From an uncultured Thiotrichales bacterium (GTDB taxonomy: Bacteria > Pseudomonadota > Gammaproteobacteria > CAZUMV01), in contig CALIRD010000099.1 of the NCBI GenBank assembly GCA_938042355.1, positions 6 to 64,005 of the forward strand: a stretch of 64,000 nucleotides of DNA. The letters run 5' to 3'. Position numbers and translations under genes: made by a program. Of this stretch, positions 8,725 through 63,519 are shown one piece after another (the first letter of the stretch is position 1; the number at the start of each line of letters is the position of its first letter). The notes beneath the pieces were generated by a model. That model did not search any database, was not told where the DNA came from, and saw only the letters and a program-made list of their open reading frames with translations.

Positions 8725-8733
8725 GAGTAAGGC

Positions 8734-9360: not shown

Positions 9361-9370
9361 GCAATCCCGA

Positions 9371-9946: not shown

Positions 9947-9976
9947 CACTTTGGTAAGTTCGTTACTGAAACGAGT

Positions 9977-35126: not shown

Positions 35127-36329
35127 GTGCTGAACATATTCCAACAAGCCGAGCACGCTATGCTGCCAAAGATGACAGCTGCAGAACGCTCGCGACAAGA
35201 ATTCGCCAAGTCATTCAAGCAACATATACAGGCTAATTTTCTGCCGGCAGTGACGTCGGCATATTTCAAGCGTGCTGTCCCGGCTTATGCTGAAGAAAAA
35301 GGTGAGGCGCCTACTGATTACCGAGAAGCGAGAACAGCCTTTCAAGATGATCCTTTATTTCAATTTTATTTATCTTCGCAACGCGTAAGTCAGGAGTTAA
35401 TGTGGTTCGGAGTGAACGAATCGATTACCCGGCAACTGGATGAGTTGAAACAACAGGCGGAACAATTACCGGCTACCGGCGGCACACTGGAAATCGATGA
35501 TGATTTCACGGTACCTAAATATGTTTCATCTCTGGATATACACTGCATGCCTGGTGGCTATGTAGGTAAGGATGGAAGTGACCCGCTTCATGCAGGTGCG
35601 CTGTATGATCGTGGTGTCTACTTATATGCGATGGGGTATATGGGGCCTAACAATGATGATATGGGTCGCTCCGTATGTAATTACATAACCCGTAACCTCC
35701 TTGATTTCAAACCAATGAAAATTCTGGATATTGGTTGCACTGTTGGGCATTCAACCTTGCCTTATGCCGAGCTGTTTCCCAACGCAGAGGTTACTGCAAT
35801 TGATGTCGCAGGTTCTTGTGTAACCTATGCACATTACCGGGCAGAAGCGATGGGCTTACCTGTGCATTTCAAGCAGAGAAATGCCGAAGCTACCGGTTTT
35901 GAAGATGAGAGCTTTGATCTGGTTGTCTCACATATACTTCTGCATGAAACATCAAAAAAGGCGATGCCTAAAATCTTCAATGAGTGTCATCGTATATTGA
36001 AACCAGGCGGCTACATGATTCATGCCGATCTGCCACCATTCGAAAATATGGATGCCTATACACAGCTGATACTGGATAACGAAACCTGGTACAACAATGA
36101 GCCATTCTGGAGTGCAATGAGAGAAATGGATCAGATTGAATTGGCGAAAAAAGCCGGCTTTGCAGAAGAAGATATATTCTTTGATACCGCAGGTATGGCC
36201 ATCATGGAACAAGCCAGACAGGCTGAGCTGGATGTGGCTGATGCGGTTGAAGAACTCGGAGAGCGAGAGTTTACTGCTGGTGAGTATGCTCCTGGCGGAG
36301 GCTGGGAAGTACTGGTCGGTAAGAAATGA
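35127..36329 (+). CDS. Class-I SAM-dependent methyltransferase with long N-terminal extension (paralog MT2)
   Basis: KILDIGCTVGHST. TAIDVAG. HFKQRNAEATGFEDESFDLVVSHILLHE. RILKPGG. NNEPFW. N-terminal MPGGYVG. GTG start at 35127, or alternatively ATG at ~35160. Confidence 0.8.
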   Translation: MLNIFQQAEHAMLPKMTAAERSRQEFAKSFKQHIQANFLPAVTSAYFKRAVPAYAEEKGEAPTDYREARTAFQDDPLFQFYLSSQRVSQELMWFGVNESITRQLDELKQQAEQLPATGGTLEIDDDFTVPKYVSSLDIHCMPGGYVGKDGSDPLHAGALYDRGVYLYAMGYMGPNNDDMGRSVCNYITRNLLDFKPMKILDIGCTVGHSTLPYAELFPNAEVTAIDVAGSCVTYAHYRAEAMGLPVHFKQRNAEATGFEDESFDLVVSHILLHETSKKAMPKIFNECHRILKPGGYMIHADLPPFENMDAYTQLILDNETWYNNEPFWSAMREMDQIELAKKAGFAEEDIFFDTAGMAIMEQARQAELDVADAVEELGEREFTAGEYAPGGGWEVLVGKK

Positions 36330-36729: not shown

Positions 36730-37923
36730 ATGAGTAAAAAAGATGAATTGCCAATCGCAATCATCGGAGCGGGGATTGGTGGACTGACTCTTGCTTTGGC
36801 GCTACTCAAGCAAAACAAGAGTGTGCGCTTGTTTGAGAAGGTTTCACGATTTGCACAAATAGGTGCGGGTCTCTCCCTGGCTCCGAACTGTGCGAAGGTA
36901 TTGCAGCGTCTTGGTGTGTTAAAAAATATTGCGCCATTAGCTGATACACCCGAATCAGGTTTTATCCTGCTCGGTGATAGTGGAGAGCAAATTCACAATA
37001 CGCCTTTTTCCAAAATCGAATCGATTTTTGGTTACCCGTACTATCAAATCCATCGTGCGCGCTGTCACCAGTTACTGGTAGATGAGGTTTTAGCGCATGA
37101 CCCTGATTGTATTGAAATGAACGCCGAGCTCCTTGCGATTGATCAGTCTGGTGAGCAAATCTGTCTGGATTTCATTCACCAGAGAAAGCAACGAGTGGCC
37201 TGTGTGATTGGTTGTGATGGGGTCAGATCAGCAGTTCGGAAATTGTATTTTGACGAAACCGCGCCTCTTTTTACTGGCTATGTGGCATGGCGAGCGTTAG
37301 TGCCTATGAACGATATTGACGCTACCTATCAGCAGCCAGTCTCTTTTGTAAATCTCATGCATCAGCGCCAACTTGTTCATTATCCAATAAATCTTGGGCA
37401 GTATCTGAATGTAGCGGCTTTCGCAGAACAGGACTGGCAAATTGAAAGTTGGACAGAACCGGCAGATATAGAGGAAATGCATAGTGTTTACAGTGATTTC
37501 AGGCCCTCGGTACATGAATTGATTGACGCAATTGACCCGGAACACTGTTTCAAGTGGGCCTTATATGATCGGGATCCTATCGATCATTGGAGTAAAGAAA
37601 AAGTGGTCTTGATGGGGGATGCTGCTCATCCGATGTTACCTTACTTGGGGCAGGGCGCCGCCATGGCAATTGAAGATGCCTGGTATCTGTCACAAGCGAT
37701 TGCAATCTACGATGACTACGAAACGGCTTTCTCTGCTTTCCAGCGAGCAAGAAAAACCCGTACCGATTGGGTTCTGCAAGAATCTCGTGCCGCAGGTCAG
37801 CGATTTGCCACCGAGAAGCCTTCTGCTGAAACCTATGCTGATGATAAAGCGATGTCGACCAAGGTGATGTTTGGCTTTGACCCGATTGCAGAATGCGAGC
37901 AGGCTTACTCTAGCGCTGCCTGA
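36730..37923 (+). CDS. FAD-dependent monooxygenase (salicylate-hydroxylase-like)
   Basis: IAIIGAGIGGLTLALALLK and LMGDAAHPMLPYLGQGAAMAIEDAWYL. Confidence 0.85.
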   Translation: MSKKDELPIAIIGAGIGGLTLALALLKQNKSVRLFEKVSRFAQIGAGLSLAPNCAKVLQRLGVLKNIAPLADTPESGFILLGDSGEQIHNTPFSKIESIFGYPYYQIHRARCHQLLVDEVLAHDPDCIEMNAELLAIDQSGEQICLDFIHQRKQRVACVIGCDGVRSAVRKLYFDETAPLFTGYVAWRALVPMNDIDATYQQPVSFVNLMHQRQLVHYPINLGQYLNVAAFAEQDWQIESWTEPADIEEMHSVYSDFRPSVHELIDAIDPEHCFKWALYDRDPIDHWSKEKVVLMGDAAHPMLPYLGQGAAMAIEDAWYLSQAIAIYDDYETAFSAFQRARKTRTDWVLQESRAAGQRFATEKPSAETYADDKAMSTKVMFGFDPIAECEQAYSSAA

Positions 37924-39555: not shown

Positions 39556-40902
39556 ATGGAGAAAGTCTCACAAAAAATCCGACTGAGCTGGGGCAGTGGT
39601 GCCTTGGGCGTGGCCATCTTAATGAATGTGATCGCCTTCGTGGTGGTCTTTTTTATGGTTCAAGTTCTTGGCTTAAATCCAGCACTTGCGGGAGCCTTGG
39701 TGTTTATCTCCAAAGTGGTCGATATTATTACTGACCCTATAGTTGGGCGTTGGAGTGATCAATACAAAACGAGTGGGAGTAGACGGCGACCGTTTATGTT
39801 GTACGGCGCTTTTATATCTGCAATATCTTTTGCGATGATTTTTACTACTCCAGAATTTGGTAATCAATGGATTACCGCTAGTTACATGCTGTTAGCGCTG
39901 ATCATATACACATTGGGTTATACACTTTTTAATCTGACCTACTTGTGTATGCCAGCAGAAATGACAGACGACTATCATGAGAGAACGGAGATTCATGGCT
40001 ATCGTATGTACTTTGTTGCTGTTGGTGGTTTGTTAGCTCAAGCAGGTGTACCTCCATTACAACAATGGTTAGGTGCAGATAAGGCCGAGACGTACGTGGT
40101 TATTGGGGTGGTCGGTGGTGTAGTTATCCTCGCTTCAATGCTGAGTGCGTATTACGGCACTGCTAAAGCCAAATTCACTACTGCAGCGATAGAGAAAACT
40201 GACTTTATCAAGGAATATTCTCACGTCCTTAAAAACCGGCATTTTCTAAGGGTGTTAGGTATCAAGGCATCGCAACTTTTTGGTGTTGCGGCGATTTCAG
40301 TCTCTACTTTGTTTTTCTTTAAAGATTTACTGCAGGCGAGTTTGAATATACTGGCGTTTGTGGGTGTTGTGTCATTTCTATTTACCGTCGCGAGTGTTCC
40401 TTTATTGGTTAGACTCTCCAAAAGAATTGGTAAGGCGCAAACCTATGCAGTAGCAGGATCATTATACGTATGCTCGGCATTGAGCTGGGTGTTTGCACAG
40501 GCTGGTGAGCCTACCTGGGCAATACTCATCCGGTACGCCGTAACCGGTATCTCTGTTAGTGGCAACATTGTTATGGCAATGTCGATGCTGACTGATTGTA
40601 TAGAATATGATGCTCGCAAGTCAGGCATTAGACGTGAAGGGGCATACACAGCCTTGTATACGTTTACTGAAAAATTCACTTTTGCACTAGGACCATTGGT
40701 GTTTGGTGTTGCACTGTCAATGGCGGGGTACAGTGGTGATTTGGCGCCAGAAATGACACAAACACCGGAAATACGTCAGGCGTTATTATTGGGTATGTCT
40801 TATATCCCGGCAGCAATGGGCGCTTTAGCAATCTATTTATTGCTAGGCTATAAACTAACGAAGGAAGAATTGGACAAAGCAGGAGATAGTCTTGAAGAAT
40901 AA
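39556..40902 (+). CDS. MFS/GPH-family (MelB-like) cation symporter
   Basis: 12 TM helices with the GPH-type motif DIITDPIVGRWSDQYKTSGSRRRPFMLYGA. Confidence 0.85.
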   Translation: MEKVSQKIRLSWGSGALGVAILMNVIAFVVVFFMVQVLGLNPALAGALVFISKVVDIITDPIVGRWSDQYKTSGSRRRPFMLYGAFISAISFAMIFTTPEFGNQWITASYMLLALIIYTLGYTLFNLTYLCMPAEMTDDYHERTEIHGYRMYFVAVGGLLAQAGVPPLQQWLGADKAETYVVIGVVGGVVILASMLSAYYGTAKAKFTTAAIEKTDFIKEYSHVLKNRHFLRVLGIKASQLFGVAAISVSTLFFFKDLLQASLNILAFVGVVSFLFTVASVPLLVRLSKRIGKAQTYAVAGSLYVCSALSWVFAQAGEPTWAILIRYAVTGISVSGNIVMAMSMLTDCIEYDARKSGIRREGAYTALYTFTEKFTFALGPLVFGVALSMAGYSGDLAPEMTQTPEIRQALLLGMSYIPAAMGALAIYLLLGYKLTKEELDKAGDSLEE

Positions 40903-41950
40903 AATACCAGCAGCTAACTTGAATCAACGAGGGCGTGCTTCATTTGATTTTTTAGGTCACATGTTTCATGGCACCCACAAAATTCGTACGGCTGCCAGCG
41001 AGTATGTTGAAAACGAATTTGGTGATGGCAGTGAATTGCCGGAGGACCTGGATCAGCGTGTAAAAACCGTCTCTGAATTTGCGTATCAATTACCTGCTGC
41101 CAGGATCCGTCGTACAGTCGGTGAGTGGCATGCCAGTAACCACGGTCAAATAGCGATAGAAGCTTTTGAGGAGCTCGGAGAGGATTTTGCCAAGGATCTT
41201 CATCAGTATGACGAGGGCAGCAGCAGCCTGACGCTGGATGATGATTATGATGTGCCTGCCTATTGGGACGGTGTTGAGTTTCATCGAACCAGTGGCGGTT
41301 GGGACGGACATCAATACATGGGCTTTATTCACGGTGAGCTCGTGCATAAAAAAATGGTAGATGTCATTTACCCGGGCGGCATTTTCAAACAGCGCTGTGA
41401 GGTCGCCAAGCTGGCGCCGCAGAATGAGTATGAAAAAATTCTAGAGATGGGTACCTCGACTGGTCATTTCACCCTGGGTTTGGCATTGGCCTATCCTGAG
41501 GCAAAAATCACCGGCGTTGATCTTTCAAGACGGGCGCTGGAGCATACGCTGCGAGTTGGTAACGCTAATGACTATGCCTGGGATCTCTACCGCAGACCGG
41601 CCGAAGCGACTGGGTTTGATGACAGCAGCTTTGATCTTGTGGCGTCTTATATTTTATTACATGAGTTGCCCGTGCAATCCATTAAAGACGTATTTAGTGA
41701 AGCCTACAGAGTACTCAAGCCAGGTGGAGATATGCTCATGAGTGATGTGGTTCGTTATGCAGAGATGAACAAACTGCAGGTGTCTCTTGCGGATGAAGAT
41801 GCCAGCTATGGTGGTGAGCCATTCTGGCGTGAGTCTGCCAGTGCAGATCTGGCGGCGATCGCCGAAGAAGTTGGTTTTACTGATGTCAAAATCACAAACC
41901 TGGGCACAGGTCCTTATCCGCACGTTGTTCTTGGAACCAAGCCATCATGA
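40892..41950 (+). CDS. Class-I SAM-dependent methyltransferase with N-terminal extension (paralog MT3)
   Basis: KILEMGTSTGHFT. TGVDLS. AEATGFDDSSFDLVASYILLHE. RVLKPGG. GGEPFW. N-terminal SGGWDG. The TTG start lies 6 nt after an AGGAG RBS and overlaps the stop of the upstream transporter. Confidence 0.75.
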   Translation: MKNKIPAANLNQRGRASFDFLGHMFHGTHKIRTAASEYVENEFGDGSELPEDLDQRVKTVSEFAYQLPAARIRRTVGEWHASNHGQIAIEAFEELGEDFAKDLHQYDEGSSSLTLDDDYDVPAYWDGVEFHRTSGGWDGHQYMGFIHGELVHKKMVDVIYPGGIFKQRCEVAKLAPQNEYEKILEMGTSTGHFTLGLALAYPEAKITGVDLSRRALEHTLRVGNANDYAWDLYRRPAEATGFDDSSFDLVASYILLHELPVQSIKDVFSEAYRVLKPGGDMLMSDVVRYAEMNKLQVSLADEDASYGGEPFWRESASADLAAIAEEVGFTDVKITNLGTGPYPHVVLGTKPS

Positions 41951-52147: not shown

Positions 52148-54091
52148 TCAAGGTCTTACAATTTCAAACCAGAAATCAAAGTCATCCAATAACCCAAAAA
52201 ATGATTGTAATGCATTAACATTACCACTCACATCCAGTAAGTTTTCTTGAGCCAGCTGGGCAATTGTTTTACTCCCAAGGTTTAATTGATCCAGTGCAGT
52301 ACGTGACATACTCAAGCTGGCAGTTGGGTTGTTATCTTGAGTATTGAGTCTGTGGTGTAGAGTGCCATTGCTAACAATCAATAGCGCAGTTTCGCCGGTG
52401 TCGGTTAGTTTGAAGTTAAAACGCCAGTCATTAGTGGCAGCTTTTGGACCGTTTAGACGAACGGCCAGTGTATCGAAGTATAAGTCGAGTGGGATGGCTC
52501 TAACCATATCAGCGCTTGATGTTCTCGGAGTCGGTAGATCGAGTACACCTCTGCGTAGTTCGGCAGCCCCACTCAAATAGAAGTTTCTCCATGATCCCGA
52601 TTCGGCTCTGAAGCCTAATTGCTCATAGGTATCTGCGAGTAAATTACTGGCGGCTGAATTTTCAGGTTGGGCAAACACTAAATGATTAAGCGCTGTCGCT
52701 ACAAACCGGTATTCGCCATTAACATAATCCTGCCTGGCTTTTTTCAGGATTGCTGCGCTGCCACCCATATAATCTACGTATTTTCGTGCTGCTGCCACAG
52801 GCTCCAATGGATCAAGGTTGGCTGGGTTGCCATCAAAATAACCGTAGTAAAGTTGGTATTGTGCTTTAGAGTTGTGACTGACAGTGCCGTAGTAATCGCG
52901 GTTGGCAAATGATCCAGCTATGGCATCCGGTAATTCAAGTCTTTCCGGGATTTCATGCATAGTATAACCATGGTTCGATAATCGCAGCGTTTGATCATGA
53001 ATGTAACGATATAAATCACGCTGACCTGTCCAGAACGATATGATTTTATCGTTGCCCCATGTAGGCCAGTGATGTGAACCAAAAGACACTTCTGTTCGTG
53101 ACCCAAAGCGGGTAATTACTTGATCAATATATTGACTCCAACGTCGACCATCACGAACTTTGGCGCCCCGCGGGGTATACATGTTATGCAGAGTGCGATT
53201 GATAATTTCTGCCTGGCAAAATGCCTTGAATTCGGGCAAAAAGAACATGAATTCAGTCGGCGCCTCTGCGCCCAAAGCCAACAAAAATTCGAAAGTGATA
53301 CCATCGATAATCATCGAGGTTGTGCTCTCTGTAATTTCTCTGGTTGGCCGTATCAGACCGGGTGTGCCACTGGAAATAGCCTGGCCCAATCCGACACCTA
53401 CTTGTCCTTGTGGGGATTTGGGTAATAACGAACCAAACATATAACTCGCGCGCCGCCCCATTTGATTGCCAGCGAGTATGTTTTCGCTAATGGTTTCACG
53501 AGTAAAACCGACAGGAGCAATCACTTCAGTTCCTGATGACAGGTCTTGCTCTGAAATTATTCCACGAACACCACCGTAGTGATCCAGATGCGAGTGTGTA
53601 AATAATACTGCGCTGATTTTACGCTTACCTAGTTCTTGCTCAACCAGACTCAGTGCAGTCGCGGCAGTTTCTTTAGTGATTAACGGGTCTATAACTATCC
53701 AGCCAGTATTGCCTTCAATAAAAGTGATGTTGGAAAGATCAAAACCCCGCACCTGATAAATTCCATCCATGACTTTATACAGACCATGTTTGGCGGCGAG
53801 TTGACTTTGTCGCCACAAACTTGGGTTTACTGATGCAGGTCGCTCGCCTTGCAGAAAGTCATAAGCACCAAAATCGTAAACAACCTGACCATTGTCACTG
53901 GTGACCGTGGTGTTTTCCAGGGTGGCGATAAAGCCACGCTCCGCCTGTTCATAATCATCACGATTACTGAAATCCAGTGTCTGTGAAATGTAGGAGGATT
54001 TTTCCGGGGCAAGTAGAGATCTTTCAATACTATTTGAAGCACACGCGCTCAATGACAACACGCACACACCTATGACAAGCAAATTCTTCAT
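52148..54091 (-). CDS. MBL-fold alkyl/aryl-sulfatase (SdsA1-type) lipoprotein with C-terminal SCP2-like domain
   Basis: THSHLDHYGG metal motif. Start set at the internal ATG giving MKNLLVIGVCVLSLSACASNS (lipobox). The track's upstream extension to 54244 is rejected. Confidence 0.85.
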   Translation of the reverse strand: MKNLLVIGVCVLSLSACASNSIERSLLAPEKSSYISQTLDFSNRDDYEQAERGFIATLENTTVTSDNGQVVYDFGAYDFLQGERPASVNPSLWRQSQLAAKHGLYKVMDGIYQVRGFDLSNITFIEGNTGWIVIDPLITKETAATALSLVEQELGKRKISAVLFTHSHLDHYGGVRGIISEQDLSSGTEVIAPVGFTRETISENILAGNQMGRRASYMFGSLLPKSPQGQVGVGLGQAISSGTPGLIRPTREITESTTSMIIDGITFEFLLALGAEAPTEFMFFLPEFKAFCQAEIINRTLHNMYTPRGAKVRDGRRWSQYIDQVITRFGSRTEVSFGSHHWPTWGNDKIISFWTGQRDLYRYIHDQTLRLSNHGYTMHEIPERLELPDAIAGSFANRDYYGTVSHNSKAQYQLYYGYFDGNPANLDPLEPVAAARKYVDYMGGSAAILKKARQDYVNGEYRFVATALNHLVFAQPENSAASNLLADTYEQLGFRAESGSWRNFYLSGAAELRRGVLDLPTPRTSSADMVRAIPLDLYFDTLAVRLNGPKAATNDWRFNFKLTDTGETALLIVSNGTLHHRLNTQDNNPTASLSMSRTALDQLNLGSKTIAQLAQENLLDVSGNVNALQSFFGLLDDFDFWFEIVRP

Positions 54092-54185
54092 TTTACATAC
54101 TCGATGTTCGTTGATTATAGTGAAACGATACAGGATGGCTCCGACAAGATCGAGAATCCTGATGACGAAATCCAGCAATGAATAT

Positions 54186-55616
54186 TTAGCGCAACAACAG
54201 AATAACTGCAGCCAGAAGTAGCAGTGGTAGCCATACAAAGACACGATCAGTGTTTGTTTTTTGTCTCAAAATACGAGAATAGGCAAGCTGGTGGTTTTGT
54301 ACCAGCAAGAATGCAGGTTTGTTGATAAACCAGGGTAAAAGTTTATGTAAAGTATGCTGCAACAAGAAGCGTATCACCCACATTTTCATGCGCCAAGGTG
54401 ACTGATTATACTGATAGGGAAACACTGTCTGCACCAGTTTTACGAGTGCTTCGGATTCGACGAGACGGTGCTGTTCATACCGTTTAAAGTCATCGGAAAT
54501 GTCAGCTTGATCTGTCATATAGGTTTCCAGTTCGTATAAATCTTCCAATGCTGAATTCACACCCAGGCCAAGATCAGGAGGAAAGGCATGAGCTGCATCT
54601 CCAATCAACAGACAATGGGTAGGAGTTTCTTCTCTGCCTACACGTGCGTATAAAGATAGAGCATGTTGTGGTGATGGAAACTTACCGGCGGTCAAACTGA
54701 CAAAATCAGACGCTTCTTCTTTTGATATCAGATTCGGTATATCCAGTTGCGGAAAAGCCTCTGTGAGATAGGTAATTAAATCGTCTGCTTCTTTGAGTGT
54801 CCACAAATGGTGATCCGCTTCCCGGATTATGTTGACGCTTCTGGGATGCTCTGCATTTGCAACGGGAAAGCCAAACAATGCCATTGCTTTGGTTCTGTCT
54901 TTATGAATTGAGGGAAATACATAAGCCATGCGATGGTCATTCACCTCTGACTGCTGTCCTTTGATAGAAAAATTCGGGGGCAGATTCAATACCTTGTAAA
55001 AAAGCTTGGCACTCGGTGATTCATACTTCTTCATCTCAAAATGACTGTCAGGCATTGCTGGCCAATCAGAAAGTAATTTTCGTGTAGTGGAGGTTAATCC
55101 ATCGCAGGCCAGCAATATATCCGGTGAGAATTGAAGTTCTGTGTCTTGAGAGTCAGTAATGGTTACGAGTGCTTTTCCATTTTCTGCTTCTGTAATGCTG
55201 GAGAGGGAATGGTCATAGAGCAGCTTGATGCTGTCATCAGTTCGTCTCTGCACCGCCTGATACAACATGGTTTGTAAATTTCGTCGTGTTGTCCAGTAAC
55301 AGGTGACTCTGTCTTTGTCGATAATCGGTGAATCAATAGTTTTGCTGCTTCCATCGGGGAGTATGGTGGTAGCGTGAAATGATTTGTTGGCAACGCCGAA
55401 TGATTCAAGGTCTTTCATCAGACCCAGTCGCTTCAGCAGCTTTTGACCGCGTCCATCGATCTGATAGGTAAATGCTTTGTTTTTTTCAAAATCTTTTGCT
55501 GAACTTCTGCGCTCGACTACCGTGATATTCTGGTAACCAAGGTCAGCAAAAAGTAAGGCAGCGGCAAGCCCGCTTGGACCGGCCCCAATGATTAATACTT
55601 TGTCGGCAATATTCAT
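54186..55616 (-). CDS. FAD-dependent monooxygenase, kynurenine-3-monooxygenase-like, with C-terminal membrane anchor
   Basis: VLIIGAGPSGLAAALLFADLG and LIGDAAHAFPPDLGLGVNSALEDL. Hydrophobic C-terminus LPLLLLAAVILLL. Confidence 0.8.
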   Translation of the reverse strand: MNIADKVLIIGAGPSGLAAALLFADLGYQNITVVERRSSAKDFEKNKAFTYQIDGRGQKLLKRLGLMKDLESFGVANKSFHATTILPDGSSKTIDSPIIDKDRVTCYWTTRRNLQTMLYQAVQRRTDDSIKLLYDHSLSSITEAENGKALVTITDSQDTELQFSPDILLACDGLTSTTRKLLSDWPAMPDSHFEMKKYESPSAKLFYKVLNLPPNFSIKGQQSEVNDHRMAYVFPSIHKDRTKAMALFGFPVANAEHPRSVNIIREADHHLWTLKEADDLITYLTEAFPQLDIPNLISKEEASDFVSLTAGKFPSPQHALSLYARVGREETPTHCLLIGDAAHAFPPDLGLGVNSALEDLYELETYMTDQADISDDFKRYEQHRLVESEALVKLVQTVFPYQYNQSPWRMKMWVIRFLLQHTLHKLLPWFINKPAFLLVQNHQLAYSRILRQKTNTDRVFVWLPLLLLAAVILLLR

Positions 55617-55625
55617 TGACTGTGT

Positions 55626-56795
55626 TTATAAAGCCACTGTGGCAGGGTCATACATGGTTAAGCCCAAAGTGTCTTCCGTGCGTAAGGGGTTTTTTGCCAG
55701 TGCGTAAGGATCCTGTCCCATTAGTGTGTCTCCACCACGATGTGATTCGAGATGCACTTTAGTGACCCGTTCAAGACGTCCGTCTTGATAGTGTTCTAAT
55801 GCTGCTTGTGTGTCTTCAAATTCAATCAGACAGCGTGACATGATGATGGCATCTTCCAATGCGGTGGCTGCGCCTTGTCCAAACCATGGCAACATCGGGT
55901 GGGCGGCATCACCCAGCACTGCTGCATTGGTTTTGATCCACTGTTGCAAAGGCTGTCGCGCAAACAAACCCCATTTATGAATGTCGGTTCCTTTGAATGC
56001 GCCGAGGACGGTATTCACCTCAGGATGAAAATCTGAAAACAGAGTTTGCAAGGTAGAAAGTTTGCCGGTCTGTGACCATCCTTCGGCAGCCCAGTCGTCT
56101 GCTTTTGAAAAAGCGACCACATTTTGTATCGCGCCTTGACGCACCGGATAACGCACACAAATACGTCCGGGAGAAATAAACACGGATGATCCAGCCTGAA
56201 GATCCAGTTCTGCTACATCAGCGGTTGGAATAAGTCCTCGCCAGGCAACATAGCCGGTAAATTCAGCATCATCTTCAGTAAAAACCATTCTTCTCACAGT
56301 AGACTTGAGTCCGTCAGCGCCAATCAATAAATCTGTGCTGCATTGATCGCCATTACTGAAGTCGAGATGGTAGGTATCATCTTCCTCAGTAATGTTGGTC
56401 AATTCTGCGGCAAGTGTTATGCCCTCAGGTTTGAGTTCCAAATACGCATCGGTCAGTAGTTGATGCAGGTCGGCGCGATGCATTTGTAAATAAGGTGCAC
56501 CCAATTTTTCTTCGGTATGTTTTCGATCAATAAGTACAAGCACTTCACCGGTTTCAAAATGCCGGGTGATTTGGATCGGAGGCTCATCGGCCTGAGCTCT
56601 GATTGCGTCACCCAGACCAAGATAGCGTAGTGCTTTTACTGCATTAGGTGAAAGTGAAATACCAGCACCGACTTCACCCAGTTCTCTAGCTTGTTCATAA
56701 ACATGTACCTCGCGTCCTGCTCTGGCAAGACCAAGGGCGAGCGCAAGACCGCCTAGTCCTGCGCCTATAATTACTGTGGGATGATGGTGTGACAT
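55626..56795 (-). CDS. FAD-dependent monooxygenase (salicylate-hydroxylase-like)
   Basis: VIIGAGLGGLALALGLARAG and VLGDAAHPMLPWFGQGAATALEDA. Confidence 0.85.
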   Translation of the reverse strand: MSHHHPTVIIGAGLGGLALALGLARAGREVHVYEQARELGEVGAGISLSPNAVKALRYLGLGDAIRAQADEPPIQITRHFETGEVLVLIDRKHTEEKLGAPYLQMHRADLHQLLTDAYLELKPEGITLAAELTNITEEDDTYHLDFSNGDQCSTDLLIGADGLKSTVRRMVFTEDDAEFTGYVAWRGLIPTADVAELDLQAGSSVFISPGRICVRYPVRQGAIQNVVAFSKADDWAAEGWSQTGKLSTLQTLFSDFHPEVNTVLGAFKGTDIHKWGLFARQPLQQWIKTNAAVLGDAAHPMLPWFGQGAATALEDAIIMSRCLIEFEDTQAALEHYQDGRLERVTKVHLESHRGGDTLMGQDPYALAKNPLRTEDTLGLTMYDPATVAL

Positions 56796-56797
56796 AT

Positions 56798-58393
56798 TTA
56801 AAGACCCAATACACCCGGGTTCATGAGGTTGTCCGGGTCAAGTCTGGATTTGATACTTTTGAGTAGAGATAGGGAGGCTTCGTTTCGTTCACGCGTATAG
56901 GGATAAGTGCGGCCAATTTGATAATGTGTGCCTCCATGTTGATACATCAGATCAATAATTGATTCTTTAATTTGATCGACTACCTGCTGTGCTTCAGGAT
57001 TCGCATCAGCCTCATTCATTAGATTCAGTATTTCTGCAGACATGGTTTTTTTATGAAGTTCAGGCCATTCATCCGGCCAGTAAATGACGCATTCCCATAG
57101 AAACCCGGCTGTTCCGCAGGTGGCGTATACCACGCAAATATCAATATCATGTTGTTTGCATAGTTCATCATGTTCGGCGAGCAATGCATCAAAACCTTGT
57201 TGTAGCTGGTTGGCTTGCGAGTAGGGAACAATGGTATGCAATGGCAATAGACGTTTTCCCGCTGGTCCCAAAACCATAGGGTCAGGAAATGGGGTTTCCT
57301 GAGTCATGACTGCCACGGTGTTGGCAGTCTCGACACCTTTATTTCCAGCGAACTCTCTAATTCTGGCGACATTGGCGTTCAGTTCTCTTTTGCTAGCTCC
57401 TTCGGTGAGAAAATTAATCAGATATTTAGAATTATCTAGAAAGCTGCGACCATTTTTAGCAATGTTGAGAACTTTGCCCAGCGTGGCTAATGGTTTATCG
57501 GAGTGTTTAATCATTTGCAGCATTTGACGGGCATCGTTCATCAGGTCCGGTGTGCCAGCGACCATTTTCACCAACCTGGTTTCAGCACCAAAAATTTCAG
57601 TAGAAACTTTATGTCTTGATATAAGACGGACAGCCTCCAACAATGACGGAAAGTCATCAAAGGAATAAGAAAGGCCAGTAGATTTAACCGGTAGAGGTTC
57701 CAGTCTGAGCGTGATCGCTGTTTTTATACCCAGCGCACCAGAGTCACCGCAGAAGACGCCGGTTAAATCAGGACCGTACTCCCGGTAAAAGGCACTGTGT
57801 TCTGGTTGGCCAGCGGAACCAGTGACCATAACACTGCCATCGGCGAGTACAACTTCAAGGCCAATAGTGGCGCTGATTGATGAACCATTACGTGATGATC
57901 CCAAAGTCACTGCACCTTGAGAGACCGCACCGCCCACGCTGGATACCTTGCCGGACATCGGCCCCCAAAAAATACTTCTCACGGAATGCTTGCGCAGTTC
58001 TTGTTCCAGTTGTAGCCAGGTACATCCCGCTTCGACAGTCACATACAAATCATGGGCATTGATTTTACGTATGCGGTTCAGTCTTGAAGTATCAAGAATA
58101 ATTGCATGGCTTTGCGTGGGCAGGTGTGCATCGGTATAGGACATGCCGCCACCGCGCGTGAAAATTGCGGTTTTGGTGCGGCTGGCTGCACTAACAATTG
58201 CGCTGGTCTCTTTAGTGTTTGAAGGTGAGACGAGCGCCAGTGGTGTGTGACCAGAACGATAAACATCCTGTGCCGCGAGTGTTAAGGAGGCTTCATCGGT
58301 GACAACATGTTCGTCACCGATAAGATCTTTCATATCCTGAAGTAACGCAGTTACTTCAGATTCTGTAGCCTGTGCGACTGGTTGTGATGACAT
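56798..58393 (-). CDS. FAD-linked oxidase (FAD_binding_4 / vanillyl-alcohol-oxidase-like)
   Basis: The N-terminal PCMH-type FAD-binding domain is recognised here mainly by overall layout and contains ...FTRGGGMSYTDAHLP. 531 aa. Its stop is 2 nt from the next ATG. Confidence 0.75.
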   Translation of the reverse strand: MSSQPVAQATESEVTALLQDMKDLIGDEHVVTDEASLTLAAQDVYRSGHTPLALVSPSNTKETSAIVSAASRTKTAIFTRGGGMSYTDAHLPTQSHAIILDTSRLNRIRKINAHDLYVTVEAGCTWLQLEQELRKHSVRSIFWGPMSGKVSSVGGAVSQGAVTLGSSRNGSSISATIGLEVVLADGSVMVTGSAGQPEHSAFYREYGPDLTGVFCGDSGALGIKTAITLRLEPLPVKSTGLSYSFDDFPSLLEAVRLISRHKVSTEIFGAETRLVKMVAGTPDLMNDARQMLQMIKHSDKPLATLGKVLNIAKNGRSFLDNSKYLINFLTEGASKRELNANVARIREFAGNKGVETANTVAVMTQETPFPDPMVLGPAGKRLLPLHTIVPYSQANQLQQGFDALLAEHDELCKQHDIDICVVYATCGTAGFLWECVIYWPDEWPELHKKTMSAEILNLMNEADANPEAQQVVDQIKESIIDLMYQHGGTHYQIGRTYPYTRERNEASLSLLKSIKSRLDPDNLMNPGVLGL

Positions 58394-58396
58394 CGA

Positions 58397-59446
58397 TCAG
58401 GCAGGTTTTACAGCGGTGGTCAGTGACAGGAATGTCGGTGTCGGTGCCTGTTCAATCTCGTCAAAGCCTGCTGCTTTTATCAGTCCGGGAAAATCTGATT
58501 CTACAAAAGCTGGAGCATAAGGTTCGCAGTTGTATTGAGCGTCAAATTTTTGCCACATGCGATTGGCGGCTGGCAAGCTCGTACCCAGTGGAGCATCAAC
58601 GATGGTCAAGGTGCCGCCGGGGCGCAATACTCGCATCGCTTCTTCGAGAATGGGTGCGAAGGTATGCTCCGGTGTTTCGTGAAACAGTATGTAGGCGAAG
58701 ACGGCGTCGAAACTGCTGTCTTCTTGCGGCAGGTTCTCAGCCAGTGCCTGTTGAAAATGCACTTCTGACTGTTGTTCATTGGCGCGATAGTTTGCATAAC
58801 GTAACAAGGGAAGAGCTACATCAACACCCCAGATGTCAGCCTCTGGATAGGCGTCTTTGAACGCCGTGGTGCACTGTCCAATCGAGCAACCTAGATCGAG
58901 TATGCGCGTTACTTTGCCGTCAGCAGGTTGCCTGAGCATATCTACATAAAGCTTGTGTAGCTCATCGTTATCGTTCATGCCCTGATAAAAGACGCGGGTA
59001 CCGTGCTCAAATATGAAACCTGCCAGGTCATCTTTACAATAGCCACCCGGTTGCAAGTGTATGTCATAACAGGCGGAATCAGGAACATGAAAATCTTTAT
59101 CGTAATGCAGTCGTCCGGTCGCGGCTTCTGCCTGGTCGAGCATAGCTAGATGCTTTTCCTGATCGGCATGATAGCTGTCTCGCAGCTTGTTCCAGGTGAG
59201 CGCTTGTTGTGAACGCATCATTCTTTTCCATGAGCCGATGCGTGGTATGTCATCAACCATGTCGCTTATTTCCAGGTAATCTGAATCAGCCTTTCCTGAA
59301 GCTTCGACGGTGGTGTTGATTTTTTCTGCCAGTTCAGGAAACCAGTCTACAATGACAAAATTTCGCACCGACATCAGGTAGTCAAGGTAACTTTGATCTT
59401 CCGTTGTTGCTGGCTTGGTGACGCTTTCAAGACCATTTGCTGACAT
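58397..59446 (-). CDS. Class-I SAM-dependent methyltransferase with N-terminal extension (paralog MT4)
   Basis: RILDLGCSIGQCT. WGVDVA. QEDSSFDAVFAYILFHE. RVLRPGG. CEPY. N-terminal QPGGYC. Its stop is 3 nt from the oxidase ATG. Confidence 0.8.
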   Translation of the reverse strand: MSANGLESVTKPATTEDQSYLDYLMSVRNFVIVDWFPELAEKINTTVEASGKADSDYLEISDMVDDIPRIGSWKRMMRSQQALTWNKLRDSYHADQEKHLAMLDQAEAATGRLHYDKDFHVPDSACYDIHLQPGGYCKDDLAGFIFEHGTRVFYQGMNDNDELHKLYVDMLRQPADGKVTRILDLGCSIGQCTTAFKDAYPEADIWGVDVALPLLRYANYRANEQQSEVHFQQALAENLPQEDSSFDAVFAYILFHETPEHTFAPILEEAMRVLRPGGTLTIVDAPLGTSLPAANRMWQKFDAQYNCEPYAPAFVESDFPGLIKAAGFDEIEQAPTPTFLSLTTAVKPA

Positions 59447-59626
59447 ACGAAGTACTCCTGAATATTATTGACGCAATTGCTTAACAAAAAGATTACCCTA
59501 AAATTCGTAAGACGACCAATGTGTACATGGTATGCTGCTATTCACAGATTGTATGGAGTCTGCTGCGCGTAAAGCTAGGATTCCTGCTTAATCTTTCGAA
59601 CAAAACAATACCAAACGAGCAATGCG

Positions 59627-60538
59627 ATGAATTTGCGACAATTAGAGCATTTTGTAGCTGTTTTTGAACAAAAAAACCTGTCTAAAGCAGCCGAGGCCAT
59701 CCCGTTGAGCCAGCCGGCGCTTACCCGCAGTGTGCGAACGCTGGAAGATCAGGTTGGTGTTGAGCTATTCCTGCGTCATGCCCGGGGTGCAACACCTACA
59801 GCCGCTGGCGAACGCTTGTATCATCATGCGAAATCCATTCTTGCAGAATGTGCCCGCGCCAAGCGGGATGCACGACAATCGGACGGTGAAATTGCCGGCA
59901 CCGTAGCAATCGGCATAGGATCATTGTTTGCTTCTCACATCATAGACAATATGATTACGCGCTTTTGCGAGAAGCACCCAAACGCACGCTTGCGTGTCCA
60001 TCAGGGTTTCTTCGAAGATCTGGTTAACTTACTTGAAACAGGTGAGATCGAAGTCGCTTTCAATAATTTGCCGCTGTTGTCCTTACCTGAAAATATGGAA
60101 TTTGAACCGTTACTGCAGGTGCATTCAAGTGTCATCGTTTCTGCTATGCATCCCTTGGCTAACTCCGAAGATGTTGATATCAAGGAGCTCAGTCATGCAA
60201 AGTGGGCGACGGTTTCACAGCCACACGCACTGGAAGTGCTTGACTCATTGTTTATCTCTGAGGGTGTTGCTGCTCCGCAGCCGGCTATTCGAACCAACTC
60301 ACTGACATTAATTAAATCTCTGGTGATGTCTTCTGACTTTGTCTGTTTGTTACCGGATCATTTGTTCTCGGAAGAATTATTGGCAGGAGATGTGGTAAGG
60401 CTACCAACGTCGTCTACACCAGTAACCCGTAGTGCCGGCTTGCTGTTCAAGAAAGACGGCTTCAGACGACCTGTGGCGAACGCCCTGGGTGCCGAGATTC
60501 AGGAAGTTGTTAGTCAACTCAGCGATGTATTAAATTAA
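59627..60538 (+). CDS. LysR-family transcriptional regulator, divergent from the MT4 operon
   Basis: MNLRQLEHFVAVFEQKNLSKAAEAIPLSQPALTRSVRTLE (LysR HTH) plus a substrate-binding domain. Confidence 0.85.
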   Translation: MNLRQLEHFVAVFEQKNLSKAAEAIPLSQPALTRSVRTLEDQVGVELFLRHARGATPTAAGERLYHHAKSILAECARAKRDARQSDGEIAGTVAIGIGSLFASHIIDNMITRFCEKHPNARLRVHQGFFEDLVNLLETGEIEVAFNNLPLLSLPENMEFEPLLQVHSSVIVSAMHPLANSEDVDIKELSHAKWATVSQPHALEVLDSLFISEGVAAPQPAIRTNSLTLIKSLVMSSDFVCLLPDHLFSEELLAGDVVRLPTSSTPVTRSAGLLFKKDGFRRPVANALGAEIQEVVSQLSDVLN

Positions 60539-60873
60539 CTGTTGTCCGGGTTAAATGGCTTGCTTTTAAGGGGTTCAAAAATACGTTTCACATAAGATTC
60601 CAAAGCGGCATCGCGCGTTGCTTTAGCTTCCTCGTCCAACTCAATGTTTTTAAGATCGTCGCTGCTAATCAGATTCTTTTCTTGTAGTAGAGCTTCCAGA
60701 CGGTAGCGATGATCCCGTTCGGTCCACAGTTCAGCACCCAGCGTAACAATGGTTTCCATGAGCTGGTCAATAACGGGGTTGTCCAGAAAGCTTGGCTCGG
60801 AACCTTCAGGAGGTAACTTGATGGACGCTACCTGTTGCTCGGTTAACTCATCGTGTTGCTTAATGTCCGTCAT
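60535..60873 (-). CDS. Small protein 'D' (112 aa from ATG), paralog of A, B and C; function unknown
   Basis: Core LMETIVTLGAELWTERDHRYRLEALLQEKNLISSDDLKNIELDE. ATG at 60873 preferred (the track starts one codon earlier at a GTG). Lies 18 nt downstream of the PhyH gene. Confidence 0.6.
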   Translation of the reverse strand: MTDIKQHDELTEQQVASIKLPPEGSEPSFLDNPVIDQLMETIVTLGAELWTERDHRYRLEALLQEKNLISSDDLKNIELDEEAKATRDAALESYVKRIFEPLKSKPFNPDNS

Positions 60874-60891
60874 CACACTTACTCTTGATTA

Positions 60892-61809
60892 TCAGCTTTT
60901 GCTGGCCTTGAGGCGTTGATTGAATTCTTCGTCTTCGTTGATAGTATCACGACGGGTAGTGCGCCATTGGGTGGCGAAACCTCGTGGATAATGTTCATCT
61001 CCATCTCTACTGCCGTCACTCGCCCACAGTCTGGGGAATAACGTGCCCCCGGGTATTTCACCTTCGATCATTTCATCGAAACTAACACCGGCGATATTGA
61101 GGCAGTCCGGACGAGGTTTCCAGCGTATGTCATCACCAAAAATACGTATAGACAGTGCAATACGCCAGTCATCATCTGTATTGCCATGAGAGTAGTGCAG
61201 TGTCCATGGATGAAGTACCAGCATATCGCCTGGTTCCATATCCCACTGCAGAAACTTGTTATCAGGATCAGCGCGCAACTTGTCACCGTCTGGGTGAGAG
61301 ACACGATCATCTGGTTTAATCATTTGACGGGCATTGGGTGAAAATAGCCAGTAGGGCACGTCCTGATGTTGAGACTCAGCGATACACTCGAGGCAATTTT
61401 CTTTGGAGATAGAGCTCAATGGTATCCAGATAGAGGGCACCATGACCCCCGAGGTTGGCCAACCCATTCGATCACAATGCCAGATGGTGGCATCTGTCGA
61501 GTTTGGTGCTTTGGCGAACATCTCATCAAAGAAAAATGCGGCGGTCTCCGAACCAATCACTCTCGCTGCAGCTTCAGCCATTGAGGACTGAAAGATGAAG
61601 TCACGAAATTCCTGTACGGTGCGAGACATATAGCGACCCGGGTAGGTCGGCAGTAGTCCAACATCCTCATGATCTACCGTAATTCTTTTGGCAACAGGCA
61701 GTAGTTTTTCTGCCCAGGCAGGGTCGAATGCCTGTCGTAAACAAACCACGCCGTCTCGAGCATAGGTCTCAATTTCGTCTTGGGTAATTTCCCTACATAC
61801 TTCTGTCAT
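60892..61809 (-). CDS. Phytanoyl-CoA-dioxygenase (PhyH) family Fe(II)/2-oxoglutarate oxygenase
   Basis: 305 aa. HCDRMGW...PDGD...HPWTLHYSHGN arrangement is consistent with the PhyH HxD...H facial triad. Confidence 0.65.
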   Translation of the reverse strand: MTEVCREITQDEIETYARDGVVCLRQAFDPAWAEKLLPVAKRITVDHEDVGLLPTYPGRYMSRTVQEFRDFIFQSSMAEAAARVIGSETAAFFFDEMFAKAPNSTDATIWHCDRMGWPTSGVMVPSIWIPLSSISKENCLECIAESQHQDVPYWLFSPNARQMIKPDDRVSHPDGDKLRADPDNKFLQWDMEPGDMLVLHPWTLHYSHGNTDDDWRIALSIRIFGDDIRWKPRPDCLNIAGVSFDEMIEGEIPGGTLFPRLWASDGSRDGDEHYPRGFATQWRTTRRDTINEDEEFNQRLKASKS

Positions 61810-61956
61810 CGTAGTTTCCGTAAGTCGTCTGTCTATGAAAGTATTTCTGATGATTACAATATTCTCGTTTCTTGATTGAAAATGCCAATGAGAAAGTGGT
61901 TAATGCGTTATAAGCTTATTGCATGGCGACCGTTTTTCTGACTATGCAAACACCGT

Positions 61957-63519
61957 ATGGCTTGTATAACATCTGGTATTGCAACAACTCAGCCAAGTTG
62001 CGTATATTGCATCTTAAACATCTATCAGGAGTGGCTTATCAGCACTGCAAAAACAGTCTCATCTCGTTTACGTCGCGCTCAGGATCATTTCATTAATGGC
62101 AAGCGAGTTAAAGCAAGCAAGCATAGGGATGTAATAGATCCAGCAACCGAAAAAGTGATCACCAAGGTCGGTCTTGGCGGTAAGCGTGAAATTAATCTCG
62201 CCGTACAGGCAGCACGCAAGGCATTCCCTGCGTGGTCAGTTACCGCGGCGGATGAGCGTACCCGAATAATTTTAAAATATGCAGAGCTGATTGACGAGAA
62301 TCAGGATGTCATTACGGAGCTCGCCATTCGTGATGGAGGGATACCGCGTGCTGTGGCTGAGACCTGTGCATTTTTCTGTGCATTATTTCTTCGTTATTAC
62401 GCTGGTTGGCCAACCAAAATTACCGGGCAGACCTTGCCTTCGACACCTCATGGCAAAGATCCCGCTGACGTACTGGCGTATACCTTGCGAGAACCAATCG
62501 GTGTGGTCGGCGGTATTACGCCTTGGAACTATGCCTTTGGTATGGAGATGCTGAAAATTGCACCAGCACTCGCAACCGGTTGTTGTCTGGTCCTTAAACC
62601 TGCAGAAGAAGCGCCGATCGCAGGATTATTTCTGGCTGAGTTAGCGCATCAGGCCGGTGTGCCTGACGGAGTCTTCAGCGTTGTTAATGGCTTGGGGCAT
62701 CAGGCCGGAGCTGCGCTGGCTGAACACCCTGATGTAGATAAAATCGCATTTACCGGTTCAACCGAGGTGGGGCGTTTAATCGTGCATGCAGCCACCGGTA
62801 ATTTGAAAAAAGTATCACTCGAGTTAGGTGGTAAATCACCCGTATTTGTTTTCCCGGATGCGGATATGGATGTGGCCATACCTGGAGCAGCGATGGCTGG
62901 CTTTGCCATGTCAGGGCAGAATTGTGTCTGCGGCAGTCGTTTATATGTACATGAGGATGTCGCTGATCAAGTAGCAGAGGGCATAGCAGCATTTGCTGCG
63001 CAACTGAGCATGGGGTCTACCCAGAGTGCCAGCTCGGATATCGGGCCGTTGATTTCTGCCAAACAACGGAACCGCGTTGAAAAGATGATCAGGAATGCAA
63101 AAAAGCAGGGCGCCAAACTGGTGTGTGGTGGTGCCCGCGGTAAGGGTAAAGGTTTTTATATTCAGCCAACTTTGTTTGATCATTGCAAGCCGTCGATGGA
63201 GCTGGTCAAGAATGAAGTATTTGGGCCAGTGATTGCGATGCAGCGATTCAGTGACAAGGATGATTTTGAAGCATTGGCCGCGATGGCTAACGACAGCTGC
63301 TATGGACTGTCGGGTAGTGTCTGGACGCGAGACCTGCAAACAGCCATGGTAATGACCAAGGCGATCAATACAGGTCAAATCGGGGTTAACTGTCATGCGG
63401 CAATGGATCCTTCCATGCCATTTGGCGGTACCAAAGAATCAGGTTGGGGCGCGGAATTTGGTGAGGCAGGTATTGAATTGTTCACCAAAGACAAAGCCGT
63501 GACCTTGATGTGGAATTAA
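61957..63519 (+). CDS. Aldehyde dehydrogenase with atypical ~35-aa N-terminal extension
   Basis: ELGGKSPVFVFPDAD and GQNCVCGSRLYV. The only canonical in-frame start is the ATG at 61957. An AGGAG at ~62027 is followed by no ATG, GTG or TTG. Confidence 0.85.
   Translation: MACITSGIATTQPSCVYCILNIYQEWLISTAKTVSSRLRRAQDHFINGKRVKASKHRDVIDPATEKVITKVGLGGKREINLAVQAARKAFPAWSVTAADERTRIILKYAELIDENQDVITELAIRDGGIPRAVAETCAFFCALFLRYYAGWPTKITGQTLPSTPHGKDPADVLAYTLREPIGVVGGITPWNYAFGMEMLKIAPALATGCCLVLKPAEEAPIAGLFLAELAHQAGVPDGVFSVVNGLGHQAGAALAEHPDVDKIAFTGSTEVGRLIVHAATGNLKKVSLELGGKSPVFVFPDADMDVAIPGAAMAGFAMSGQNCVCGSRLYVHEDVADQVAEGIAAFAAQLSMGSTQSASSDIGPLISAKQRNRVEKMIRNAKKQGAKLVCGGARGKGKGFYIQPTLFDHCKPSMELVKNEVFGPVIAMQRFSDKDDFEALAAMANDSCYGLSGSVWTRDLQTAMVMTKAINTGQIGVNCHAAMDPSMPFGGTKESGWGAEFGEAGIELFTKDKAVTLMWN

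Follow-up and report, generated by a model that had tools for sequence, protein, structure and literature searches.

Gene organization of the MT4 operon

The DNA analysed here (the window) is a stretch of 64,000 nucleotides from contig CALIRD010000099.1 of an uncultured Thiotrichales bacterium (assembly GCA_938042355.1), in which four genes are packed together on the minus strand beside a divergent regulatory gene. The first gene (58397–59446) encodes MT4, a class I S-adenosylmethionine (SAM)-dependent methyltransferase (MT) of 349 aa, identified from its open reading frame (ORF) and Pfam matches, as was the next product, a 531-aa FAD flavoprotein from a divergent subfamily of the vanillyl-alcohol oxidase/p-cresol methylhydroxylase (VAO/PCMH) superfamily (56798–58393). 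FMO389 (55626–56795) is a 389-aa group A flavin monooxygenase (FMO) placed by Pfam, NCBIfam and PDB matches in the salicylate/3-hydroxybenzoate-6-hydroxylase clade. The last gene (54186–55616) specifies a 476-aa group A FMO that resembles kynurenine monooxygenase (KMO) by Pfam and PDB matches and carries a predicted C-terminal membrane anchor. A LysR-type regulator of 303 aa, with HTH_1 and LysR_substrate domains, is encoded on the plus strand (59627–60538), divergently from MT4. A previous reading made from the letters alone (the sequence-only reading) had described these genes as an operon with a LysR regulator, in which two hydroxylases and a VAO-type oxidase act on one aromatic scaffold. 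Its coordinates for all five genes match the program-made ORF list exactly and Pfam domains agree with its gene families. The operon, the families and the LysR layout stand. The unit was drawn too narrowly, the action of two hydroxylases on one scaffold would hold at most for this lineage, and the role given to the VAO-type protein is not established.

The intergenic gaps, announced as 2–9 nt, measure 3 nt (58394–58396), 2 nt (56796–56797) and 9 nt (55617–55625). A clear Shine-Dalgarno sequence (CAGGAG) is present at MT4 only, and the other three genes start right after the preceding stop codon, an arrangement consistent with translational coupling. The same tightly packed four-gene order is found in two relatives, L087 and L089, and the arrangement goes beyond chance, since dozens of divergent genomes have the order MT-VAO-FMO. 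We conclude that the four genes form one real operon beside a LysR-type regulator gene. No RNA element or riboswitch was matched in the leader by Rfam, and there is no tRNA within the window. A 162-aa ORF starting at GTG (58372–58860, plus strand) runs antisense to the MT4/VAO junction; it is Arg-rich, of low complexity and probably spurious.

Conservation of the gene cluster

The operon was compared with 80 loci from species-representative genomes, together with contigs located via individual homologues. Synteny was counted on a non-redundant set of 53 loci, in which the oxidase shares at least 44% identity with that of the window, adjacency being scored where the contig sufficed. The MT gene immediately precedes the VAO gene in 51/51 loci, FMO389 immediately follows VAO in 43 of 50, and a gene of the PhyH family is present in 40 of 53. 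Almost all carriers are metagenome-assembled genomes (MAGs): uncultured Thiotrichales (90% and 63% identical), Gammaproteobacteria including 'Ca. Foliamicus', Woeseiaceae, Steroidobacteraceae/Nevskiaceae and Rhodospirillaceae. The short list of cultured or named carriers comprises Altererythrobacter lutimaris (strain JGD-16, L079) and a Polymorphobacter MAG. The proteins of one uncultured Thiotrichales MAG (L073) are 90–96% identical to those of the window.

The families that most often accompany the cluster are aldehyde dehydrogenases (ALDHs), an OATP-like MFS transporter, alpha/beta-hydrolases, a PrpE/Acs-type CoA ligase, a GMC oxidoreductase, TonB receptors and TRAP/MFS_2 transporters; biosynthetic enzymes that form a scaffold are not among the top ones. 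In the window itself, genes for hydrolases, a sulfatase, amidases and transporters form an island.

A candidate LysR operator in the shared spacer

The Pfam matches of the regulator are HTH_1 (1.2e-19) and LysR_substrate (2.4e-35). Its best NCBIfam matches, PRK09791 and PcaQ, are both under cutoff (150.6 vs 303.8 for PcaQ). The spacer between lysR and MT4 (59447–59626, 180 bp) had been called AT-rich. Its GC content is indeed lower than that of the window (39.4% vs 46.1%), but ordinary for an intergenic region, the others ranging from 32 to 49%. Searching it for T-N11-A sequences, as had been suggested, was uninformative, with 15 found for 15.2 expected by chance. The best dyad of this single spacer (59459–59471) was dropped as evidence, being inside the MT4 leader and not conserved.

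A divergent LysR orthologue, 61–96% identical, is present in 13 other loci, and phylogenetic footprinting was carried out on the 14 spacers. The sequence ATTGG occurs exactly once in each of them (14/14), 60–82 nt from the MT start codon, and was used to anchor an ungapped alignment. Several blocks are conserved at constant offsets from this anchor: CAT-N11-AT(G/A) from -35 to -19, G(C/T)AT(A/G)C from -15 to -10, TTGGnn from +1 to +6 and, 18 nt further on, TAnnCT. Among 11 representative sequences, 16 columns are at least 80% identical, compared with 0.07 expected from 2000 shuffles (at most 2) and 0.11 in controls with a shifted register. The composite box-promoter pattern has one match in the window (59516–59555) and, in 3.05 Mb of related loci, matches LysR-MT spacers only.

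In the window, the candidate box of the type bound by LysR-type transcriptional regulators (LTTRs) reads CAT-N11-ATA on the minus strand and TAT-N11-ATG on the plus strand (59539–59555, with the T-N11-A core at 59541–59553). Over the 14 spacers, its CAT half-site is kept in 12, its AT(G/A) half-site in 14 and its fixed offset in 13. The centre of the box falls about 64 nt before the start of transcription predicted for MT4, where the LTTR recognition site lies in textbook systems. Between box and promoter, the GCATAC block (59530–59535, minus strand; G(C/T)AT(A/G)C at a fixed offset in 11/14 spacers) is possibly half of an activation site. The predicted MT4 promoter (59490–59519, minus strand) combines a -35-like TTGGTC (59514–59519), an 18-nt spacer and a -10-like TAATCT (59490–59495). 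A consensus scan for promoters and terminators, whose counts were at chance level, missed this conserved promoter because its -35 element is weak, as would be expected for an activator-dependent promoter. The proposed LysR-target arrangement thus gains support from a T-N11-A-type box at a fixed distance from the promoter in 13 of the 14 orthologous spacers, and the regulatory layout appears to be the textbook LTTR arrangement, now with a candidate operator defined.

The best consensus promoter match of the region (59440–59468, plus strand; CTGACA-17-TATTAT, 10/12) is directed at lysR. With this promoter, the lysR leader would include the conserved box, which is compatible with autoregulation. 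In a 79%-identical relative (L001, 8594–8948), the LysR-MT spacer is longer (353 nt), and 17-nt direct repeats (CTATTCACCTATCAGCG) flank a run of N, corresponding to either an assembly gap or a repeat expansion.

The cluster extends beyond the regulator gene

Behind lysR, the minus strand encodes a small conserved ORF of 113 aa with a GTG or ATG start (60535–60876) and a PhyH-family Fe(II)/2-oxoglutarate (2OG) dioxygenase of 305 aa (60892–61809; Pfam PhyH, 1.7e-18). A 520-aa ALDH (61957–63519, plus strand; Pfam Aldedh, 4.5e-159) diverges from the latter. The small ORF has no match in Pfam or NCBIfam even at E = 5. Its orthologues (about 105–120 aa) are found in 24–35 loci, always beside PhyH downstream or just before the MT gene, the position immediately upstream of MT being that of alphaproteobacterial and LysR-less loci. 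In the window, it is convergent with lysR and the two 3' ends overlap by 4 nt (60535–60538).

PhyH is the best conserved protein of the cluster (61–93% identity, where the VAO protein shows 38–90%). Its closest solved relative is MysH (E = 9e-24 over residues 6–236), with the HxD and distal His ligands aligned. MysH, itself dependent on Fe/2OG, releases glyoxylate by alpha-hydroxylation of an N-glycyl group (PMC10666671). The ALDH has as its best NCBIfam match the StyD-type phenylacetaldehyde dehydrogenase (490.8 bits for a cutoff of 850), and is divergent from PhyH in about 27 orthologous loci.

A predicted promoter and a second LTTR-type box lie upstream of PhyH (61861–61925, minus strand). 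The box (CATGCAATAAGCTTATA, 61909–61925) precedes a -35-like TTGGCA (61883–61888) and a -10-like GAGAAT (61861–61866), a site that the consensus scan flagged independently. A box located 35–36 nt upstream of ATTGG is present at the PhyH promoter in 8 of the 9 loci with an adjacent LysR gene and in none of the 10 without, for a background frequency of 0.0058 per position. This distribution suggests that LysR acts at both candidate boxes, the promoter elements of the two spacers being predictions drawn from conservation.

The four-gene unit originally described is therefore too narrow: PhyH and the small ORF belong to the same conserved cluster, the PhyH promoter shares the box, and the ALDH is a probable regulon member. 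In LysR-less genomes, the genes for PhyH, the small ORF, MT, VAO and FMO form one unbroken block on the same strand. The simplest reading is that of a single pathway, which the regulator gene would here split into two transcription units sharing one operator type.

The methyltransferase and its paralogues

The class I core of MT4 occupies residues 180–300 of 349 (Pfam Methyltransf_25/11/31) and is preceded by a family-specific helical domain of about 170 aa. All NCBIfam matches are far under cutoff. The AlphaFold2 (AF2) model (pLDDT 89.7) shows four long N-terminal helices before the Rossmann core and has no full-length counterpart in the PDB (TMq at most 0.49). The core is similar to that of small-molecule C-, O- and N-methyltransferases (Coq5, CouO/NovO, CysG/BelI, SibL, DsyB and RebM/MitM). 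Used as a query, the 170-residue N-domain retrieved just 110 representative clusters among 1.84e9 proteins, nearly all of them proteins of 340–410 aa with the domain at their N-terminus.

Three paralogues with the same N-terminal domain are encoded in the window (26940–28067, minus strand; 35127–36329, plus strand; and MT3, 40892–41950, plus strand), in an identity range of 23–30%, and keep the invariant residues of both domains. Each adjoins aromatic-type hydroxylases, ALDHs, esterase-type or other hydrolases, or transporters including MFS_2, and the 64-kb window is an island of modules of this kind. Nearby are an MhpA-like FMO (29623–30816), a 3-hydroxybenzoate-6-hydroxylase (3HB6H)-like FMO (36730–37923) and an HpaE-like ALDH, although every NCBIfam match of these sister-operon enzymes is below its curated cutoff. 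The MFS_2 transporter gene and MT3 overlap by 11 nt (within 39556–41950, plus strand), and an MT3-like and MFS_2 pair lies a few kb from the MT-VAO-FMO cluster in at least 15 other loci (e.g. L007, L009, L012 and L021). On one contig carrying the orthologous cluster (L011, 823–3800), a second pair of MT (31% identical to MT3) and VAO-family (39%) genes stands beside MFS_2, which suggests that the MT-VAO pairing is a recurring module.

The VAO-family flavoprotein

This protein, which has more than 1700 homologues, comprises an FAD_binding_4 domain (1.6e-29) and a cap domain, and gives a weak FAD-oxidase_C match (8.5e-08). It reaches neither the cutoff of GlcD, a D-2-hydroxyacid dehydrogenase (TIGR00387, 110.6 bits vs 567.9), nor that of NF008408 (69.5 vs 897). 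Foldseek searches with its AF2 model (pLDDT 81.3) gave the best E-values with the D-lactate/D-2-hydroxyacid dehydrogenase mLDHD (TMq 0.67), the highest TMq (0.72–0.73) with the vanillyl-alcohol dehydrogenase MfVAD, EUGO and 4-allylsyringol oxidase, and TMq values of 0.63–0.69 with alkyl-DHAP synthase (AGPS). The MfVAD sequence 'KNFAYGG' contains a Tyr that D-lactate dehydrogenase does not have and to which an invariant residue of the flavoprotein, Tyr86, aligns. In VAO, the phenolate is bound by the triad Tyr108/Tyr503/Arg504.

A paralogous branch of the family (38–43% identity) is found without an adjacent MT gene in Rhodospirillaceae MAGs (L056–L074, about 5000–11600), flanked by genes for an alpha/beta-hydrolase, an MhpA-like FMO, an ALDH and an Amdase/maleate-isomerase-like protein.

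The two flavin monooxygenases

Both FMOs match Pfam FAD_binding_3, the KMO-like protein in two stretches. The best NCBIfam match of FMO389 is 3HB6H, at 246.7 bits for a cutoff of 459 that is not reached; nor is that of salicylate hydroxylase (155.6 vs 446). Its PDB matches extend over the full length: tropone 2-monooxygenase (3e-58), the fungal decarboxylative vanillate 1-hydroxylase (4.7e-58), NicC (4e-49) and 3HB6H (4e-43). The best PDB matches of the KMO-like protein are KMOs, at 9e-13 and 2.5e-12, which are weak values obtained with split alignments. The C-terminal membrane anchor proposed for it is borne out by a predicted hydrophobic segment at residues 457–475 (KD19 = 2.28). No kynurenine-pathway genes are found near its gene.

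The KMO-like gene occupies the same operon position in L087 (91% identity) and L089 (80%), and just 2 of 53 other orthologous loci contain it, on the opposite strand beside an alpha/beta-hydrolase gene. In Sphingomonadales, its homologues stand alone or in other contexts. It is thus a lineage-specific addition, not a core member. Two different hydroxylases are indeed encoded here, but the absence of the second from 51 of 53 orthologous loci means that their action on one scaffold would hold at most for this lineage.

Comparison with known systems

The regulatory region resembles the divergent catabolic operons controlled by LTTRs (PcaQ/pca, CatM/BenM, NahR): the regulator has HTH_1 and LysR_substrate domains, the spacer is short and shared, and a T-N11-A-type dyad is centred near -64 of a promoter whose -35 is weak, a second conserved block being closer to this -35. 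It differs by its CAT/ATG half-sites, by the repetition of the same site at a second promoter about 2.3 kb away, and by a regulator under every equivalog cutoff. The enzyme set, in contrast, matches no described pathway. With the 4-alkylphenol/4-hydroxybenzyl oxidising flavoenzymes (VAO, PCMH, eugenol oxidase and vanillyl-alcohol dehydrogenase), the flavoprotein shares the FAD_binding_4 fold and a similar length (531 aa vs about 520–560 aa). It gives its highest TM-scores with them and has a Tyr aligned with that of the 'xxYGG' loop, but is only 16–20% identical, and no gene for a cytochrome c subunit is present here. FMO389 is similar over its full length (E = 1e-43 to 3e-58) to group A phenolic-acid hydroxylases (3HB6H, salicylate hydroxylase, NicC, vanillate 1-hydroxylase and tropone 2-monooxygenase), with FAD motifs kept, whereas its operon partners (MT, VAO-type and MysH-like proteins) are foreign to those pathways.

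An adjacent SAM methyltransferase and FAD_binding-type oxidoreductase are also found in BfaB/BfaA, which act successively on a methyl-derived carbon in the synthesis of 10-methyl fatty acids; SMT and DHCR24 are a comparable pair. BfaB, however, is a CMAS-family enzyme working on lipid double bonds, whereas MT4 has its own N-terminal domain and aromatic-type hydroxylases as partners; assignment of MT4 to the BfaB type was rejected, with no match to PF02353. The PhyH protein has the fold of MysH, an enzyme of the mycosporine-like amino acid (MAA) pathway, and its HxD...H ligands, but is longer (305 aa vs 270 aa) and found in a setting that looks catabolic. MAA biosynthesis was discarded, neither mysA-D nor other MAA biosynthetic genes being present in the window or the loci. 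The homABCDER operon for homarine includes the flavin reductase-oxygenase pair HomA/HomB, a peptidase and an ALDH (PMC13236597); it was set aside as well, as its gene families do not match MT, VAO-type, FMO or PhyH.

Proposed regulation and function

With moderate confidence, we propose that the four genes are one LysR-activated unit, half of a two-promoter regulon for an inducible catabolic or detoxifying route acting on a hydroxylated, electron-rich cyclic compound. LysR would bind the CAT-N11-AT(G/A) box near -64 of each promoter and, with an inducer, activate the weak promoters with a TTGGnn -35. The MT promoter would drive MT, the VAO-family flavoprotein and the group A FMO, joined in this lineage by the KMO-like one; the PhyH promoter would drive the MysH-like dioxygenase and the small ORF, with the ALDH diverging from it. 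In the tentative order of steps, the 2OG dioxygenase would remove or hydroxylate a heteroatom-linked substituent, MT would methylate the ring or a hydroxyl, and the tightly coupled VAO-type enzyme would oxidise the benzylic or alpha position. The ALDH would then oxidise the resulting aldehyde, and the 3HB6H/vanillate-hydroxylase-like FMO would hydroxylate the ring, possibly with decarboxylation. The KMO-like enzyme may perform an extra, lineage-specific hydroxylation at the membrane. The most likely candidate substrate is a para-substituted phenol or a hydroxy-heteroaromatic from algal or plant organic matter.

Gene structure, families, synteny and the conservation of promoter and box are observations, whereas binding by LysR, this order, the catabolic direction and the aromatic nature of the substrate are inferred. 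A ring compound is suggested because the characterised enzymes closest to FMO389 all use phenolic or tropone rings, several of them hydroxylating with decarboxylation; because the oxidase is similar in length to 4-phenol oxidases, gives its best TM-scores with them and has one pocket Tyr in common; because FMOs resembling MhpA and 3HB6H and an ALDH resembling HpaE are encoded in the sister operons; and because the MT core resembles phenol/enol C- and O-methyltransferases. An aromatic substrate is thus plausible. The catabolic reading rests on neighbours that fit uptake and side-chain oxidation, with no scaffold-forming biosynthetic enzyme among them, and the set is probably for the breakdown of a phenol-like compound.

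Several observations weigh against this proposal. The top co-occurring families include no ring-cleavage dioxygenase, catabolic routes do not usually involve a SAM methyltransferase, and no enzyme of the operon attains any NCBIfam equivalog cutoff. The closest solved relative of PhyH is biosynthetic and its substrate is a non-aromatic cyclohexenimine. The flavoprotein is 16–21% identical to 4-phenol oxidases, D-2-hydroxyacid dehydrogenases and AGPS alike, and its cap domain is not alignable by sequence with that of 4-phenol oxidases; the VAO-type oxidase of an aromatic scaffold put forward by the sequence-only reading is thus not established. Finally, the consensus scan predicted no terminator that would define the 3' end of the operon.

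The constant pairing of MT and VAO genes could also mean that both enzymes act on the same carbon, methylation being the activating step of catabolism and not a decoration. MT would C-methylate or methylenate the substrate, the flavoprotein would oxidise the methyl as p-cresol methylhydroxylase does, or reduce an exomethylene as BfaA and DHCR24 do, the ALDH would convert aldehyde to acid, and the vanillate-hydroxylase-like FMO would exchange the carboxylate for a hydroxyl. Besides the adjacency in 51/51 loci (with a 3-nt gap here), the second paralogous pair in L011, the BfaB/BfaA precedent, the C-methyltransferases Coq5, CouO/NovO, CysG/BelI and SibL among the structural neighbours of MT, the many decarboxylative hydroxylases among the nearest FMO389 relatives and the conserved ALDH all speak for it. 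MT4, however, unlike BfaB, is without a CMAS-family signature, and the chemistry is roundabout compared with direct hydroxylation, so that we regard this scheme as unlikely. Its extension to a widespread, unrecognised methylation-dependent catabolism in aquatic Proteobacteria is more doubtful still: a MysH-like dioxygenase would prepare the substrate, the dedicated MT family with its own N-terminal domain (four paralogues in this island) would install a transient methyl handle that activates a ring position, the obligatorily coupled new VAO branch would oxidise this methyl, and the ALDH and a decarboxylative hydroxylase would remove the same carbon.

The conservation of PhyH raises another question, that of a non-aromatic, N-substituted substrate, which may be an amino-acid-conjugated or N-carboxyalkyl compound such as an MAA, a gadusol-type cyclohexenone, an opine or a betaine-type osmolyte. 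Oxidative N-dealkylation would fall to the MysH-like enzyme, and the VAO-family enzyme would be a D-2-hydroxyacid or amine dehydrogenase. No protein of the cluster is more conserved than PhyH, whose sole close solved relative alpha-hydroxylates an N-glycyl group; the best Foldseek E-values of the VAO protein are with D-lactate/D-2-hydroxyacid dehydrogenase; a GMC oxidoreductase and ALDH (a BetA/BetB-like pair) and OCD/mu-crystallin genes co-occur; and the carriers are aquatic, including MAGs from macroalgal surfaces and apparently from sponges. The degradation of such a compound nevertheless seems improbable, as the close characterised FMO389 relatives all act on aromatic or tropone rings, the GlcD score is 110 for a cutoff of 568, the HxxxxxxH...EH motif is not evident in the VAO protein, and the other MAA-pathway genes are absent. 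Literature searches for MAA catabolism or for this gene combination returned nothing relevant. If the enzymes instead decorated an endogenous metabolite (a pigment, quinone or signal), the cassette would be biosynthetic. All four enzyme types are common in tailoring, MysH, SibL, CouO/NovO, RebM/MitM and tropone 2-monooxygenase are biosynthetic, and KMO, a C-methyltransferase and an FAD hydroxylase occur together in the biosynthesis of 4-methyl-3-hydroxyanthranilate. Yet no polyketide synthase, nonribosomal peptide synthetase, terpene or sugar-phosphate cyclase gene is among the families co-occurring over 86 loci, where uptake systems, ALDHs, hydrolases and a short-chain CoA ligase are found instead. 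A LysR gene with a divergent target is typical of catabolic operons, and the island formed by the window has genes for hydrolases, a sulfatase, amidases and transporters. We consider endogenous tailoring very improbable.

The cluster occurs in many uncultured Gamma- and Alphaproteobacteria from marine, apparently sponge-associated, sediment and freshwater sources. Since its proteins are without characterised close relatives, it points to a still unassigned pathway by which dissolved organic matter is turned over. For enzymology, it brings together a small MT subfamily with a private N-terminal domain, a deep VAO branch always paired with that MT, and a MysH-like dioxygenase outside sunscreen biosynthesis. 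A candidate LysR operator and promoter at two sites makes reporter-based screening for inducers, and hence the discovery of the substrate, feasible. Methylation as an activating catabolic step, if true, would sharply raise the significance of the cluster.

Neighbouring genes and a related sphingomonad locus

The alkyl sulfatase gene downstream of the operon (52148–54091) was considered as a fifth operon gene and rejected, as it is separated by a 94-nt gap and absent from this position in L089, where convergent BASS, HupE and rotamase genes come right after the operon, with no alkyl sulfatase between. The mechanical ORF (52148–54244, minus strand) starts at GTG and overlaps the KMO-like gene by 59 nt; the true start is probably the ATG at 54091 (MKNLLVIGVCVLSLSAC, a lipoprotein-type signal), and the 94-nt gap contains TATAAT.

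A homologue of the KMO-like protein (53% identity) is encoded in the cultured sphingomonad Parasphingorhabdus marina (L088, 1–14200). Its neighbours are genes for PhyH, FMO, an Amdase-like protein, a TonB receptor, an ALDH, a PEP-mutase-family protein, two GSTs and LysR, families that are the ones recurring in the window.

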